A stretch of DNA of 64,000 nucleotides from an uncultured Clostridia bacterium. GTDB taxonomy: Bacteria; Bacillota; Clostridia; Christensenellales; Aristaeellaceae. The DNA is taken from the NCBI GenBank assembly GCA_944364075.1, contig CALVVZ010000001.1:48-64047 (forward strand). The letters run 5' to 3'. The notes under the pieces were generated by a model that had not been told where the DNA came from, ran no database searches, and saw only the letters and a list, made by a program, of their open reading frames with translations. Positions 15,801 to 47,236 of the stretch are shown here, one piece after another (positions within the stretch are counted from its first letter, which is position 1; every line of letters begins with the position of its first letter). Both the position numbers and the translations under genes were made by a program.

Positions 15801-16412
15801 GGAACCAAACTGAGAAATGCCGCCCAGGATGGCGAGAATTTCACTGCTTCCGCCTGCAAAGAACTGTGCGCCGCTGCCAAGGCGCTGCATGGACTGGCCC
15901 AGGGTGTCGATGTCCGCAGCGCTGATGGCGGCGGTTTTCGACATCTGATCGCTGAGTGTGTTGGCATACTCCATCGGCATACCAAGCGCATTCAGCGTGT
16001 AGTACAAATAGTCCAGGCTGTCGGCAAGGTCGATGTTTGCCGCCGTCGCCAGGTTCATGACGGTGGGCATCAGCGTTTTGGTTTGCTCCATGTTCAAACC
16101 AAGCTGCGCCATCATCACTTCGGCCTGCGCGGCCTGATCCATTGTGTATTTGCTCGACTGAGCAATGGTCTTGTTATACTCGTTGAGGACGCGCATTGTC
16201 TTGTCGTCATATTCGCCAAGCGCCTGCACTTCTCGCATTACGTCGTCGTACTCGACGTATTCCTCAACACTTTCTTTTCCAAAGTCGATAATCTTTTGAC
16301 TGAGGGCATCAATGTGATTGCCCACGTTAATTAGGGCTGTACCAATGTTTCCAAACGTATTATCTACTTTGCCACTCAGTGTGATAACCGTTTGGAGTGT
16401 CTGCTGTCCCAT
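12858..16412 (-). CDS. Tail tape measure protein
   Basis: 1184 aa, Ala/Gly/Leu-rich and helical, with hydrophobic central segments. It is the largest gene of the tail module. Confidence 0.9.
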   Translation of the reverse strand: MGQQTLQTVITLSGKVDNTFGNIGTALINVGNHIDALSQKIIDFGKESVEEYVEYDDVMREVQALGEYDDKTMRVLNEYNKTIAQSSKYTMDQAAQAEVMMAQLGLNMEQTKTLMPTVMNLATAANIDLADSLDYLYYTLNALGMPMEYANTLSDQMSKTAAISAADIDTLGQSMQRLGSGAQFFAGGSSEILAILGGISQFGSDMQGTNAGTQLRNFMLTLLAPTQSKDKLIQSLRVTEEEWAEFESYMEEAGIDVNDTADAMNELGLSVYDSTTGELKPAIQIIGELNAALSTLSEAEQNEMLGNLFGKRTTTTALNLMAALGTIIDYQQQIEGGSAGYTESMADTMEGGLGGALREFTASWDAFQTTIGETIAPAVEGVADFMTDIVNGLANMDKDKLEVLLGAATGIAAAGPTLLLAGSAFRLIGFAMTPIGAAALGLTALAAAAGALYQLGEANFAANFGEMELDTEALLAHVNGIGDAFNSTYTDVNNYNTALQTAVENFETASTTLSGDLLTSMITGATLTPEQIASITSLGETMGNELLAGISASFDKSASYLTMLFGGLDSAATDDEYAGAILLADTMYENLVGQAEQLGREFGETLGTAMDDGIITGNEYNVIMEKMQAYNDAMAFAAKADQEAELAKQLHKAQSVSWDSAESFLAEQAEIMNANLAAAEETHIGERAKWGVYFDEAISKGWINQITGTAYTDADKAAFLADMDAQYAAKVQGYKDDNAQVTMAVFDALMSQSGYGEAWQFLSRLYAGGDLKRDEHGEVSPDAVNWAALFPDGMPLYGEKNPLDDQLYDLWRGEHGASGINNKLTGILGPYMDSESIALIPRMLDDALQIGSYLYSHNATTAREMLDESPAWYVSEFFDTLGLGIKGLPDVDVAAKWADIGTSAQGEVGNLTAALKNVYDFEKVLSDMGGSFAEASNPFRDQAAAWQLMYGDINAEDYLLTATVEPVVPEGAVEAAAGEQVIPATVEPDATIDAAGMEAEAQAAGAAAETSLMTGYGDPTLDATVDSAGISSDATSAGSSAVSALYAAWGSPTLTAKVSYSGIRSGSSLFGGSKFSLFAEGGRATEASIFGEAGPEWAIPEEHTDRVANLFNAAREAAGFTWPELIARNGGLNAGGGTPAQIIYSPTIYANDANGVEQKLIEDKERIDRWWSEKQMHDDVEVYA

Positions 16413-40814: not shown

Positions 40815-41193
40815 ATTGCATTTTTCGCAATTCCTTGTAATCACTCGGCGGAAGCGGCGGGGATAACCAGTGTGTGAGGTCGCTGTTCCAGTCGAATTGA
40901 TGGAATCCCGTTATGCTGATGTCGCCATGGCTGCTCCTTGCCAGGACGCAGTTGAGTGCGTCGCTATCTTCCTTGGTCGGCTTTCTTTCCGTTGCCACGA
41001 TCCACGGGGCCTTGATTCCTTCCGAAAGGCACATCCAGTAGATGTTGAACGAGTTCTTGGGGAAATCGTCCCATCGTGTAAGCATCACGCCCTGATAGGC
41101 GTGCCACGCAAACACCTTGCCGGTGGAATCGCCGTCTGTCTCGGCAGGCAGACGGCTCTCCCTGTGAATCCAACCGTTATTTAGATTCTCCAT
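40813..41193 (-). CDS. Hypothetical protein (126 aa)
   Basis: ATG at 41193 (MENLNNGW ...). The longest ORF reaches 41217. Confidence 0.5.
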   Translation of the reverse strand: MENLNNGWIHRESRLPAETDGDSTGKVFAWHAYQGVMLTRWDDFPKNSFNIYWMCLSEGIKAPWIVATERKPTKEDSDALNCVLARSSHGDISITGFHQFDWNSDLTHWLSPPLPPSDYKELRKMQ

Positions 41194-41470
41194 CTGCCGT
41201 TTCCTCCGGCAGCTCAACGATCACGCCGCGCTCTGCAAGGGCATCAATCCAGAATTTTTGAATGTGCTTCTCGCAATGGGCCATAGCATCCCACCAGGTC
41301 GGGAAACGCCCGTGCTTCTGGCGAAATTTCATCTGGTAGTACAGGCTGTCCCGGTTGTGGGGCTGATCCGGCCTGTGATCCACTGCGCACTCCCGGCATA
41401 CACCAGGCTTCGGCGGCAAGATCATCACATTCTCAAAGGGGATTTCCTTGACCTTTACCTCATTGCTCAT
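41177..41470 (-). CDS. Hypothetical protein (97 aa)
   Basis: ORF in register downstream of thyX. Confidence 0.5.
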   Translation of the reverse strand: MSNEVKVKEIPFENVMILPPKPGVCRECAVDHRPDQPHNRDSLYYQMKFRQKHGRFPTWWDAMAHCEKHIQKFWIDALAERGVIVELPEETADGESK

Positions 41471-41474
41471 GTCG

Positions 41475-42131
41475 TCAGCCCTCCAGCAGATCGCCGAACA
41501 GTGGGGGCAGATAGCCAGCCATCACCCGGAGCAGCGGCAGCGCCACCTCGCGCATCTGCGGGTGCGGAGCGCCAGTCGTACCGAGCGCACGCAGTTTGAA
41601 GAAATGACGCCATTCGCGGATGTTAGCCGTCATGACGACCTCTGTTTTCGTGCTGGTGGGCAGCACATCACGCGCCATCTGCGGCATATCGCCAATCTCA
41701 AGCAGATCGAAGTATGCCTTTTCGCACGCCTCACAGGCTTTCTTCCACACATCGTAGGATGGGGAACCCTCGCGCCAGAAGCAAGGTTCAATCACCGTAA
41801 TCTCGCTGCCGAACTGATCTTTGGCATAGTTGCAGTAGCGCGTGCTTTCCTGGGCGAAGCTGGCAAGGCGATGCCGCACAAGCTCATGGCTCACGCCGCG
41901 ATCCACGATGAATCGCACCGTCAGGCTGGCATGTTCCAGCATGGCCTCATGACCGCGAGATACCAGCGCTTTGATGAACGTCTCAGCGGTGTCCTCGCCG
42001 ATCTTGTACTCGGTTTTGTAGCATACGCGGCCCGCCTGCTCGATGGCGCTGTAAATTGCCTTGCGGCTTGCATCGTCTATCTTCTGCGGTCGCATAACCT
42101 CAAAACCGGCCCGAATGATTCTCAACCTCAA
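41475..42131 (-). CDS. thyX: FAD-dependent thymidylate synthase ThyX
   Basis: ThyX signature RHRLASFAQESTRY (RHRxxSxxxxSxR), plus a downstream REWRHFFKLR block. TTG start at 42131; ATG at 42095 is possible. Confidence 0.88.
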   Translation of the reverse strand: MRLRIIRAGFEVMRPQKIDDASRKAIYSAIEQAGRVCYKTEYKIGEDTAETFIKALVSRGHEAMLEHASLTVRFIVDRGVSHELVRHRLASFAQESTRYCNYAKDQFGSEITVIEPCFWREGSPSYDVWKKACEACEKAYFDLLEIGDMPQMARDVLPTSTKTEVVMTANIREWRHFFKLRALGTTGAPHPQMREVALPLLRVMAGYLPPLFGDLLEG

Positions 42132-42154
42132 ACACCCTCTTTCAGTTTTCGATA

Positions 42155-42228
42155 TGGAGCTACCGGCAGGAATCGAACCCGCGTCCCCTGATTACGAATC
42201 AGGCGCTTTCCCTTTAAGCTACGGCAGC
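42155..42228 (-). tRNA. tRNA-Thr (anticodon CGU), CCA encoded
   Basis: Hand-folded cloverleaf. Acceptor GCTGCCG pairs with CGGTAGC (one G-U pair). D arm GCTT-AAAGGGA-AAGC. Anticodon arm CCTGA-TTCGTAA-TCAGG. T arm GCGGG-TTCGATT-CCTGC. Discriminator T, then CCA. Confidence 0.88.
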
Positions 42229-42597
42229 GTAGCGCCTGCTTTTTCTGCTCTCAAAGTCAGTCGGGGCAGGCTTCCCGTCCTCTCCGTGCAGGACTGTGCG
42301 GCGTCGCTCTCCGTCGTGTCGCAGTTGCTATCGGTCTGTGTTCCGTCCGGCTGGCTACGGATGGGCGCGACCCAGCAGCGCACCCGTCTGTCCGAGCTGT
42401 CAAGCGTTGCTCACTTCCGCTTTGCCACCGTGCGATATTGACCGTACCCACGGGATCGTAAGGTTTACTATGCCGCCTTTCGCTCCTGAAAGTCGCTGTC
42501 GAAACCTCAAAGACCGTTGTCTACGGACGGTTTTTCGTTGCCCGGTCGTGCCGGGGCGGCTCCCAGGCCGTAGGGAGCTTGCTGAACCGTAAAGCCC

Positions 42598-42676
42598 TGG
42601 TGGAGCAGGAAGGAATCGAACCTCCCGTGCATCCTCCGCACATGTGGAATACTGCACGCCGTCCTTTGGCTGCTCC
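42598..42676 (-). ncRNA. Non-canonical tRNA-like module (79 nt, ends ...CTGCTCC-A-CCA)
   Basis: 7-bp acceptor GGAGCAG with CTGCTCC. T arm GGAGG-TTCGATT-CCTTC. Encoded CCA. In place of an anticodon arm there is a 6-bp helix (CGTGCA with TGCACG) closing a 21-nt region. Confidence 0.5.
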
Positions 42677-42836
42677 ATGATTGCCCGTCTCTCCGGGCTG
42701 TCCCGCAAACCATGCTAAAAGGGCCTTGCGGTTGGTCACTCGTACTCGCATGGTGAACCCCGGTATCATCGCTTCCGTTACTGTTCCGGGTGGCTTTGCC
42801 CATGGTTGATCGCTCCATGAACACGGAATGCCATAC

Positions 42837-42939
42837 TGGCGGGAACGAGGGGCATCGAACCTCCATTTTTTCCACGGGCCGCGCTGACATCAAAAGAATG
42901 GCTGACCTCGTGGCATACCCGATCCAGACGGGCGTTCCC
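42837..42939 (-). ncRNA. Non-canonical tRNA-like module (103 nt, ends ...CGTTCCC-G-CCA)
   Basis: 7-bp acceptor GGGAACG with CGTTCCC. D-like hairpin CCCG-TCTGGAT-CGGG starting at position 8. T arm GGAGG-TTCGATG-CCCCT with one A-C mismatch. A ~43-nt irregular helix stands where the anticodon arm should be. Encoded CCA. Confidence 0.5.
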
Positions 42940-42964
42940 ATGTTATGCCGGTCTTTCCCGGCAG

Positions 42965-43261
42965 TCACTCGCCCCTCTCAAGGTTTTCCTCACACCATTT
43001 GAGGGCCGCGTTATACTTGAGCCATCCAAGCACGCATATCTGATCGTTGGTGCCGAAGCGGAAAACACATGCTTTGCGCTCCCGGCCCTCGGTGTAAAAG
43101 GACGCGCCGATCTTGCCATCCCAGGGCGTTTTCTCCTTCTGGCGGCACGTCACGCTCCAAACCCTCGCCACATTCATGACCTCGGAGGCGCTGCCGTCCT
43201 TGCACAGCTCCACAATCGCCTTGAGCTGTTCGGGATTGCGGAAAACGAAACGCTTTGCCAT
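42965..43261 (-). CDS. Hypothetical protein (98 aa)
   Basis: ORF in register. Confidence 0.55.
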   Translation of the reverse strand: MAKRFVFRNPEQLKAIVELCKDGSASEVMNVARVWSVTCRQKEKTPWDGKIGASFYTEGRERKACVFRFGTNDQICVLGWLKYNAALKWCEENLERGE

Positions 43262-44199: not shown

Positions 44200-44275
44200 T
44201 ACCCTTGCTCGTATATCTGCACCTATCATATACCCTTACTCGTAGTTTGTCAATAGTTTTTTACCGCTGGTCGTA
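44200..44275. promoter_or_regulatory. Three 14-bp operator-like repeats TACC(C/G)(T/C)T(G/A)(C/G)TCGTA spaced exactly 31 bp apart
   Basis: Copies at 44200..44213, 44231..44244 and 44262..44275. The middle copy fills the spacer of the leftward promoter. Confidence 0.6.
44225..44253 (-). promoter_or_regulatory. Leftward early promoter (TTGACA-17-TATGAT)
   Basis: -35 is plus 44248..44253 (tgtcaa) and -10 is plus 44225..44230 (atcata). Confidence 0.6.
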
Positions 44276-44284
44276 TTTTTTTAC

Positions 44285-44312
44285 TTTACAAAACCGCCGC
44301 CGATGATATAAT
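44285..44312 (+). promoter_or_regulatory. Rightward repressor promoter (TTTACA-16-TATAAT)
   Basis: -35 at 44285..44290 and -10 at 44307..44312. GGAGGTG Shine-Dalgarno at 44329..44335 before the ATG at 44341. Confidence 0.6.
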
Positions 44313-45514: not shown

Positions 45515-47236
45515 TTGAACGCTGTAATCTATGCCCGTTTCTCGTCGCACAGCCAGCGGGAGCAGTCCATCGAAGGTCAGCTCCGGGATTGCTACGAGTA
45601 TGCCAAACGCTATGATATAAACATTGTCGGTGAATACATCGACCGCGCCATATCCGGCATGACAGATGACCGCCCGGACTTCCAGCGCATGATTGCCGAT
45701 GCTCCGAAAAAGCAGTTTGAGCGGATCATCGTCTGGAAGCTGGATCGTTTTGCCCGCAATCGTTACGATTCGGCCCTCTACAAGCACAAACTCAAGCAAT
45801 ACGGCATCCGCGTCATATCTGCCATGGAGAACGTCGGAGAAGGGGACGAATCAATTCTCTTGGAAGCCCTCCTTGAAGCGTCCGCCGAGTATTATTCCCT
45901 CGATCTCAAGAAAAAGATCCTTCGCGGCCAGCGTGAAACCATTGCAAAGGGCCGTTGGTGTGGCGGGCCTATCCCGTATGGCTACAAGGCAGTGGATGGA
46001 AAGCTGGTGGCGGACGAAAAGACCGCACCGATCATCCGCTATGTTTTTGAGCAGTACGCCCAGGGCGTCCCCATGAAGGAGATTATCGACGAACTGAAAC
46101 GTCGCGGCGTCCGCAGCTCTCGCGGCGGAGAGCTGACCTATACCACCTTCTCCCGCGCCCTGACAAATCCCGTCTATATCGGCAATTTCATGTACAAGGG
46201 CGAATTGGTTCCTGGCGTCGCAGACGCATTGATCGACGAGGACACATACAACAAAGTGCAGATTATCGTAAAGGCCAATGCGCACGCGCCTGCCGCCAAC
46301 AAGGCAAAGGTGGAATATCTGTTTCAAGGAAAGGCGTTCTGCGGGCATTGCGGGTCGCACATGGTCGGGGAAAGCGGAAAGAGCAGGAACGGTGATGTGT
46401 ATTATTACTACTCCTGCGCGGCTCGGAAAAAAGCGCACAAATGCCGGAAGAAGAACGAGAAGAAGGACTTCATCGAGTGGTATGTCGTCGAGCAGACATT
46501 GAATTATGTCCTCACGCCAACCAGGATGCGTGACATCGCAAAAGCCGTTGTCGCGGAGTATGACAAGGAGTTTTCCGGCAGTAAGGTGCAGGAATACGAA
46601 AAGGCCATCAAGCAGTACGAGCGGGAGCTGGATAAACTGGTCGATGCTCTGGTAGATGCTCCGAAGGTAGCCCATAAGCGCATCTACGAGAAGATGGAAA
46701 CCCTGGAAACGCAGAAAGCGTCCATGGAGAATGAGCTGGTCAAGCTGCGGATCGCCAGCGAGATTCGTTTCACCGAAGAAGAAGTGCGGGCATGGCTCCG
46801 CCGCTTCTGCACCGGCGACCTCTTTGATCCTGAGTTCCGCCGCAACATCATCGACACCTTTATCAACTGCATTTACCTGTACGATGATCGCATCATCATC
46901 TTCTACAACATCAAAGGCGGCAAACAGGTTTCCTTTGTTGACCTTGCCGAATCGTTGGATAGCGAATCAGAGAGCAGTGGTTCGGATTTGAACGCAAATG
47001 CTCCACCAGAGCGAAAATCCGAACCTTCGTGGTTCGGATTTTTTTTGCGTTTTTTAACCCAGGCATGCTGGGCGCAGCCTGTCCGGGGATACCGCCCAGA
47101 GGCCGGGCTTGCGCACGGAACGCAACCCGAAGCAAAACCGGCGGCCGCCCCAAATGGGCGGACCGCCGGCTTCATGTATGGCATGTTGCCGCTGTTGCCT
47201 GCCGCGATGGCAGGCGAAAAACTCAGTTGCAGCTGA
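45515..47236 (+). CDS. Large serine recombinase (integrase); the 3' ~70-90 codons are read-through into host DNA
   Basis: Resolvase-type catalytic N-terminus (AVIYARFSSHSQ ... DRFARN). Recombinase and zinc-ribbon region (CGHCGSHM ... YYYSC) followed by a coiled coil. TTG start. The ORF then crosses the terminator at 47015..47046 and ends 14 nt inside pyk. Confidence 0.85.
   Translation: MNAVIYARFSSHSQREQSIEGQLRDCYEYAKRYDINIVGEYIDRAISGMTDDRPDFQRMIADAPKKQFERIIVWKLDRFARNRYDSALYKHKLKQYGIRVISAMENVGEGDESILLEALLEASAEYYSLDLKKKILRGQRETIAKGRWCGGPIPYGYKAVDGKLVADEKTAPIIRYVFEQYAQGVPMKEIIDELKRRGVRSSRGGELTYTTFSRALTNPVYIGNFMYKGELVPGVADALIDEDTYNKVQIIVKANAHAPAANKAKVEYLFQGKAFCGHCGSHMVGESGKSRNGDVYYYYSCAARKKAHKCRKKNEKKDFIEWYVVEQTLNYVLTPTRMRDIAKAVVAEYDKEFSGSKVQEYEKAIKQYERELDKLVDALVDAPKVAHKRIYEKMETLETQKASMENELVKLRIASEIRFTEEEVRAWLRRFCTGDLFDPEFRRNIIDTFINCIYLYDDRIIIFYNIKGGKQVSFVDLAESLDSESESSGSDLNANAPPERKSEPSWFGFFLRFLTQACWAQPVRGYRPEAGLAHGTQPEAKPAAAPNGRTAGFMYGMLPLLPAAMAGEKLSCS
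47015..47046 (+). terminator. Intrinsic terminator inside the integrase ORF tail
   Basis: aaatccgaacc (47015..47025) pairs with ggttcggattt (47031..47041). The T8 run at 47039..47046 begins within the 3' arm. Confidence 0.6.
47131..47169 (-). terminator. Probable pyk terminator
   Basis: 13-bp interrupted stem: ccggcgg+ccgccc (47138..47150) pairs with gggcgg(a)ccgccgg (47156..47169). Followed on the minus strand by TTTTGCT. Confidence 0.55.

Follow-up and report, generated by a model that had tools for sequence, protein, structure and literature searches.

The window (the whole stretch of 64,000 nt analysed here) carries a temperate phage, whose serine recombinase gene (45515-47236) adjoins the host genes pyk and ftsY; the nearest named homologues of this pyk belong to 'Clostridia bacterium' MAGs. 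A divergent promoter pair at about 44225-44312 lies between a repressor-like gene on the plus strand and the early lytic operon on the minus strand. The operon starts with a 72-aa ORF (a weak HTH match), a 70-aa ORF, a DUF1064 resolvase and a 98-aa protein (42965-43261), and continues through an ORF-free island (42964-42229), a tRNA-Thr(CGU), ThyX, a 97-aa protein (p97) and the replication genes. We looked for a terminator-like site on the minus strand between the early promoter and the island and found none; as judged from the sequence, the operon, island included, is probably driven by this promoter. The positions of the individual elements are given in Table 1.

Table 1. Early promoter and elements of the island, in their order on the minus strand of the window
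Feature	Position	Strand	Basis
Sigma-70-like early promoter, TTGACA-17-TATGAT	44225..44253	-	consensus scan, 11/12 match; consensus match alone
Leader hairpin H1 (GACTGCCGGGAAAGACCGGC)	42947..42966	-	pattern search
tRNA-like module 1, 103 nt	42837..42939	-	sequence, fold, 6 distinct homologues
Structured trailer/spacer sp1, 134 nt, from module 1 to H2	42703..42836	-	RNAalifold
Leader hairpin H2 (GACAGCCCGGAGAGACGGGC), 6 nt 5' of module 2	42683..42702	-	pattern search
tRNA-like module 2, 79 nt	42598..42676	-	MFE cloverleaf-like fold, z = -3.19; 4 versions
Conserved trailer post2, two GC hairpins within ACGGTT/AACCGT	42520..42597	-	comparison of relatives
Conserved structured segment mid	42402..42519	-	comparison with L004
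Leader hairpin H3 (GACAGCTCGGACAGACGGGT), G.U pairs in stem	42382..42401	-	pattern search
Third hairpin-led structured domain, weakly characterised	42229..42381	-	by eye; local compensatory pairs
tRNA-Thr(CGU), canonical, closes the array	42155..42228	-	ARAGORN; Rfam tRNA, 66.5 bits

Coding content and tRNA-like modules of the island

An earlier note on this DNA had seen no plausible ORF in the island, and this holds in the sense that no ORF there is conserved. The ORFs that overlap it, two on the minus strand (153 aa and 102 aa) and two on the plus strand (98 aa and 126 aa), match no Pfam or NCBIfam family and are broken in L004, one of the related loci (prefix L) that were gathered via the 98-aa neighbour protein, a 21-mer of module 1 and the p97 homologues. 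Between the window and L004 the island shows 85% identity, which makes it better conserved than its flanking genes (thyX 81%, the 98-aa gene 71%).

A search for an acceptor stem and T arm followed by NCCA gave four matches in the window, while 0.21 are expected per 64 kb on both strands, as estimated from 100 Markov simulations. Three of the matches are module 1, module 2 and the tRNA-Thr, and the fourth falls within a 1184-aa ORF; this last one, with GCCA at 15924-16051 (+), on the strand opposite to the ORF, was taken as chance. The positions that the earlier note had assigned to the two modules proved exact, as did the minus strand.

In both modules the acceptor stem pairs at 7/7 positions, C8C9 opens a D-like hairpin, and the T loop and an encoded CCA are present, all as the earlier note had described, with the reservation that the T stem of module 1 contains an A.C mismatch and is unpaired at this place in 5/6 homologues. 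Module 1 runs from GGGAACG to CGTTCCC plus GCCA, with a CCCG/CGGG hairpin closing the loop UCUGGAU, a long bulged arm in the anticodon-arm position and the T loop TTCGATG. Module 2 runs from GGAGCAG to CTGCTCC plus ACCA; it has a mini D hairpin (CC/GG, loop AAAGGAC), an arm made of 5 bp, an internal loop, 4 bp and an 8-nt loop, and the T arm GGAGG-TTCGATT-CCTTC with one G.U in the stem. The 7-bp acceptor stem, the T arm with its T-Psi-C-R-A loop and the 3' NCCA are those of a canonical tRNA, while the canonical anticodon arm (5 bp, 7-nt loop, U33, R37) is absent in both and tRNA models stay silent. As already claimed, a long irregular helix takes its place, and no 7-nt loop with U33/R37 was found at any position of either arm. 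With a conserved helix in place of the anticodon arm, the modules would therefore not pair with a codon. We also looked in the window for sequences that the inserted arms could target by antisense pairing; the best candidate is an 11-mer, which is about chance level.

Compared with shuffled sequences, the folding energy of module 2 is low (z in Table 1), and those of module 1 (z = -0.9) and of the whole island (z = -0.09) are no better than shuffles. Thermodynamic support being weak, the case for real RNAs rests on comparative evidence. Among the six distinct versions of module 1, 93.6% of the cells are paired, vs at most 52% when the partners are slid, and compensatory change is seen at three pairs. 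The four versions of module 2 have 90/92 cells paired and five compensatory pairs, three of these in the acceptor stem. The T loop and the GG of the D loop are invariant. These versions all come from gut metagenomes, and further homologues of module 1 were found in 3 viral and 7 true metagenome contigs only; the covariation counts are small, and the sequences related, because the module families are narrow. The evidence for selection on RNA structure is good but not overwhelming, as read from a small and related sample. The earlier description of the modules as tRNA mimics stands and is reinforced by compensatory substitutions in relatives.

Trailers, third domain and exchange of units among relatives

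The segments around the modules are structured as well. The terminal hairpin of sp1 (CCGCAA...TTGCGG) abuts H2, and RNAalifold on five versions of sp1, including the strongly diverged one of L137, predicts 31 pairs, of which 11 are compensated on both sides. The GC hairpins pointed out earlier do exist, at 42578-42559, 42556-42541 and about 42529-42511. In relatives, post2 follows at least four different tRNA-like bodies. The two mid hairpins, CTTTC/GAAAG and AAGCG/CGCTT, each show one compensatory change in L004. GCGCTGCT/AGCAGGCGC close the third domain, which stops 3 nt short of the tRNA-Thr; read by eye it has no T arm, and hence is not tRNA-like.

The slot between the leader hairpin and post2 is filled in relatives by at least 4-5 different tRNA-like bodies, namely module 2, a diverged form of it, two families distinguished by loops of 11 nt and 12 nt, and a 117-nt version. 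In the two loop families, the 11-12-nt loops are conserved and the stems co-vary. The first of them carries the loop UAUAGUACNUC on its co-varying stem (L002 4792-4872, L267 1722-1800, L277 1052-1132), and ARAGORN forces it into a tRNA-Thr(agt). In the second (L137, L262), the loop ends in CCUCU/CUCC, which resembles the anti-Shine-Dalgarno sequence.

The slot of the tRNA-Thr is likewise variable: in L004 (5583-5645), L129 (reverse complement, about 1075-1010) and L132 (about 1200-1265 of the reverse-complemented stretch shown) it holds a tRNA-like RNA of about 63 nt that lacks an anticodon arm. This RNA consists of acceptor, D and T arms plus UCCA, with 36/36 cells paired and four compensatory pairs. 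Overall, the arrays of relatives span 0.37 to 1.44 kb, and the odd units stand in them beside canonical tRNAs (Gly, Thr and Gln in L274, L277 and L271). The 1.44-kb array, L277 850-2320, lies between early genes and thyX and contains six to eight tRNA or tRNA-like units by eye, including canonical tRNA-Gly(tcc) and tRNA-Thr(cgt).

Proteins are also found inside the arrays. An ORF of 99 aa (MSKEPIYRIKVEVIGEEKEG...) stands between two hairpin-led tRNA-like units at L002 4451-4758, at L003 3702-4009 and in L132, the order in L002 and L003 being tRNA-like unit, 99-aa ORF, hairpin, tRNA-like unit; protein cassettes therefore use the same punctuation. The island is thus a mosaic array of independently exchanged units, each with a leader hairpin, a tRNA-like body and a structured trailer, and not one RNA.

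A further companion of these arrays is p97, a CxxC protein encoded at 41177-41470 (-) of the window, with 75 homologues and the motif PPKPGxCxxCAxxH...PHNRDSLYYQ..F..HGRFPTW.DAM; it matches nothing in Pfam, PHROG or NCBIfam. Its gene recurs just 3' of hairpin/tRNA-like arrays (the window; L028, L203, L207, L252, L262-L278), and the leader hairpin often stands immediately 5' of its start codon. Conserved gene order may explain this association equally well, a functional link being inseparable from synteny.

The leader hairpin and its distribution

Each unit of the island is preceded by a conserved 22-nt hairpin, U-GACAG-CCSGG-ARAGA-CSGGC-A, which is absent from the earlier note. The window contains three copies by pattern search, all in the island, vs 0.02 expected. 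The T in front of H1 and the GA of H1 itself form the TGA stop of the upstream 98-aa ORF, and 7 nt then lead to the start of module 1.

The 20-nt core of the hairpin is found in at least 120 IMG/VR contigs and the 22-nt form in at least 120 GTDB species genomes; about 0.5 chance matches are estimated for 596 Gb. The hosts among the matches listed include Alpha-, Beta- and Gammaproteobacteria, Cyanobacteria, Bacteroidota, Clostridia, Planctomycetes, Spirochaetes, Chloroflexi, Myxococcota and others. GenBank phage records give 132 matches at E<=10, of which 39 have at least 99% identity. Covariation between the two S positions is perfect (81 G:C, 42 C:G, 0 mismatched), and some variants have G.U pairs or a stem of other complementary sequence. 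Outside the motif, conservation is limited to the T before and the A after it. A variable hairpin that abuts GACAG on the upstream side is enriched, in part because of tandem degenerate copies, and no pairing in a fixed register was found in the flanks. No Rfam family matches the hairpin and a literature search found no paper containing its sequence; it is possibly a new element.

In all cases (L009-L257 and the window), the hairpin is co-oriented with the downstream tRNA or gene. Of 246 distinct copies, taken from phages and prophages of many phyla, 28 have an ARAGORN tRNA and 23 a non-canonical tRNA-like RNA (7-bp acceptor stem, T arm, 60-151 nt) at 4-10 nt downstream, which amounts to about 21% of the copies, compared with a control rate of 3/1028. 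Elsewhere, too, many of the RNAs led by the hairpin have a variable insert of 30-90 nt flanked by canonical D and T arms, and in L194 a canonical CAU stem-loop is nested inside a longer arm. About 77 of the 246 copies lie 5' of an ORF with a Shine-Dalgarno sequence, mostly at a distance of 15-40 nt, and in 30/121 the hairpin comes no more than 8 nt after an upstream stop codon. The E. coli lambdoid prophages and mEp390 carry it in the early-left leader, and a variant is present in P1 between trnI and ban.

Known RNAs, rival explanations and the proposed reading

The ARAGORN and Rfam searches that the earlier note had called for returned the tRNA-Thr alone at the gathering threshold, leaving the modules uncalled and ROOL, GOLLD and tmRNA without a hit. 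The note had proposed a large structured RNA of the ROOL/GOLLD kind and a resemblance to tmRNA, and a long hairpin-rich ORF-free stretch beside a tRNA in a prophage would suit the idea of one large ornate RNA or of a tmRNA-like RNA for trans-translation. We regard this idea as effectively excluded. ROOL and GOLLD give no match at the gathering threshold in the whole window nor at E<=10 in 42000-43100; the units are exchanged separately, and the island as a whole folds like its shuffles. The likeness to the tRNA-like domain of tmRNA is real as far as topology goes (acceptor stem, T arm, CCA and a long helix at the site of the anticodon arm), and the D-like loop of module 1 looks by eye like the D-loop analogue of tmRNA. 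It does not extend further: the modules are only 79-103 nt long, pair 3:70 is not the G3:U70 of tmRNA but G-C (module 1) or A-U (module 2), there is neither an mRNA-like tag reading frame nor a pseudoknot, and ARAGORN calls no tmRNA. The only Rfam match beyond tRNA at E<=10 is the permuted-tmRNA model, which covers just the T arm and CCA of module 2 at 19.4 bits vs a gathering threshold of 84. For a permuted form, the downstream GGAGCCG could serve as acceptor strand, pairing 6/7 with the 3' strand of module 2, but this pairing does not co-vary in L004.

In order of likelihood, three other explanations come before this one. The likeliest of them, which we still consider improbable, is that the tRNA-like structures only punctuate the early transcript, being RNase P and 3' signals at which it is cut, with GC hairpins guarding the ends and the excised RNAs having no function; it resembles the plant mitochondrial t-elements. 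The alternation of tRNA-like units with small ORFs in L002/L003 would agree with such a role, and so would the position of the hairpin close behind stop codons and ahead of start codons. However, the window has several consecutive units with no ORF to separate, and punctuation alone does not require inserted arms and loops to be conserved while their stems co-vary. The next possibility, which we consider very unlikely, is that the units are decaying tRNA pseudogenes with no present function. In its favour, phage tRNA arrays are known to include degenerate copies, and the locus is a variable tRNA array (Gly, Thr, Gln) in relatives. It is contradicted by the compensatory double substitutions that keep the acceptor, arm and T helices, by the invariant T loop and D-loop GG, and by an island that outconserves its flanking genes. 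Hardly credible either are decoding tRNAs of an unusual kind, whose anticodon loop might be expanded or whose insert might be taken out by some unknown step. ARAGORN does force sister units into Thr(agt) of 81 nt, Pro(cgg) of 89 nt and Ser(gct) of 91 nt, and L194 has its nested CAU stem-loop; yet modules 1 and 2 offer no U33/R37 loop of 7 nt anywhere in the arm, and bacteria are not known to splice small introns from tRNAs.

Several precedents share parts of this architecture and none matches it, all of them differing in defining features. Species 1 and species 2 of the T4 tRNA cluster (rnaC/rnaD) are stable non-tRNA RNAs with tRNA-like termini that are processed by the tRNA machinery. The island RNAs are also non-decoding and sited in a phage tRNA array, with stability and processing here predicted, but have, compared with T4 species 1/2 as described, a full T arm, a D-like hairpin, an encoded CCA and the 22-nt leader hairpin. 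Engineered tRNA scaffolds and the natural tRNA-like processing elements (plant mitochondrial t-elements, mascRNA) resemble the modules in that something else takes the place of the anticodon arm in a tRNA body, whereby the RNA becomes a substrate of RNase P and 3' processing and is stabilised; they are synthetic or eukaryotic/organellar, whereas the island elements are natural, phage-encoded, arrayed and exchangeable as cassettes. In the Y RNA-like YrlA, a tRNA-like domain sits on a Ro-binding stem made by the 5' and 3' ends. A tRNA mimic of the YrlA kind was rejected, given no Rfam match and the opposite topology of the island RNA, which ends at the acceptor stem with CCA. HDV-like (theta) and other ribozymes gave no family at E<=10 around the hairpins or trailers, and attempts to thread post2, sp1 or the region of H2 by hand through the HDV P1-P4 scheme failed. 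Theta ribozymes, which are minimal and HDV-like, occur in gut phages, tightly linked to phage tRNA genes and also alone in intergenic regions; they lie at tRNA 3' ends and form the HDV double pseudoknot (PMC10879173). The leader hairpin is also a small conserved element tied to gut-phage tRNAs, but it stands 4-10 nt 5' of the tRNA, has a simple 5-bp stem and matches no HDV family. A literature search found no paper describing anticodon-less phage tRNA-like RNAs.

We favour, with moderate confidence, the explanation that the island encodes a cluster of tRNA-shaped, non-decoding small RNAs of the phage, whose host is an uncultured gut Clostridia bacterium; these RNAs would be processed like tRNAs and act as mimics or decoys. 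The architecture of the island, the exchange of modules among relatives and the link to the hairpin come directly from the sequences, as does the evidence for selection on the helices. Each tRNA-like unit follows one plan (the 22-nt leader hairpin, 4-7 nt, the tRNA-like body, a structured trailer), with the tRNA-Thr at the end of the array, and the bodies keep the parts read by tRNA-processing enzymes, that is, the acceptor stem, the elbow of D-like and T loops, the discriminator base and the encoded CCA. The units would be co-transcribed from the early promoter, RNase P would cut the 5' end, and the 3' end would be trimmed to CCA, so that the products could accumulate as stable L-shaped RNAs. 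The tRNA part would then be a scaffold for processing and stability as well as a handle for tRNA-binding proteins. Such RNAs would act as tRNA mimics, most likely as decoys or sponges for a host tRNA-binding factor, for example a tRNA-directed defence enzyme; the decoy idea of the earlier note thus stays plausible. Alternatively, the inserted arm may be what is functional. Turnover in the manner of cassettes suggests, without proving it, an arms race, and neither a tRNA-directed defence gene nor a partner protein for the island RNAs was identified.

Some host enzymes destroy or block tRNAs, and phage tRNAs are now viewed as a response to them. If the mimic reading is true, RNAs that keep the ends of a tRNA and have lost decoding represent a different answer to tRNA-directed enzymes, or a natural tRNA scaffold. 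A broader and distinctly more tentative proposal is that the hairpin and the anticodon-less, tRNA-scaffolded RNA together form a widespread, undescribed phage module. Here the scaffold would recruit the host tRNA machinery, the exchangeable arm or acceptor end would serve as decoy or regulator against tRNA-directed defences, and the hairpin would act in cis as a universal element for a machine conserved across bacteria, for example RNA polymerase or the RNA-processing apparatus. The letter-for-letter conservation of the hairpin across phyla points to a cis-acting signal whose reader is universal in bacteria, and its identification could bring to light a rule that holds generally for gene expression in phages.

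As to what the hairpin does, it could be an end-protecting element, a signal for processing or stability, or a boxB/put-like element acting on RNA polymerase, all of which we offer as hypotheses only. Elements of the boxB/put type are hairpins of the nascent RNA by which RNA polymerase, with N/Nus factors or without help, becomes resistant to terminators. It resembles boxB of the lambda/P22 nut sites and HK022 put in its 5-bp GC stem and purine, GNRA-like loop (GAAAGA, compared with GAAAA/GAAGA/GACAA), in being strand-specific, and in its place in the early-left leader of lambdoid prophages and mEp390, where nut and put sites lie. On the other hand, neither boxA nor an N protein was recognised with it, it occurs in several copies per array and over many phyla, far beyond the lambdoid phages to which N/boxB is restricted, and three hairpins within 600 nt are a poor fit to an antitermination role that needs one per operon. 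The region of HK022 put that we searched does not contain the motif. Other roles were tried and rejected. A sigma-70 promoter with TGACA as -35 would call for -10-like conservation 17 nt downstream, where there is none; a hammerhead or HDV core, compared by hand, disagrees with the conserved letters; and the TGA of the motif, considered as a recoding site, is an in-frame stop of a long ORF in just 12/226 copies.

P1 and the leaders of E. coli prophages also have in common a structured element, conserved over about 170 nt (GGCACATGCGTCG...AGCGGTCTGG...CAGGTAGCCGGAATGTGCAAGCCAC...) and with no Rfam family at E<=0.01, that ends in a variant of the hairpin with the loop GAAGAGT (L259 1340-1530 in P1, between trnI and ban; L258 5440-5640 in an E. 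coli lambdoid prophage). Further along the early-left leader of the latter, at L258 5690-5785 and 5860-6130, we observed a tRNA-like 3' element (CCCGGTTCGATTCCGGGCGCCCA) and several single-stranded copies of (G)GGAAAGACC, which by eye are like the conserved RNase P RNA stretch GAGGAAAGUCC.
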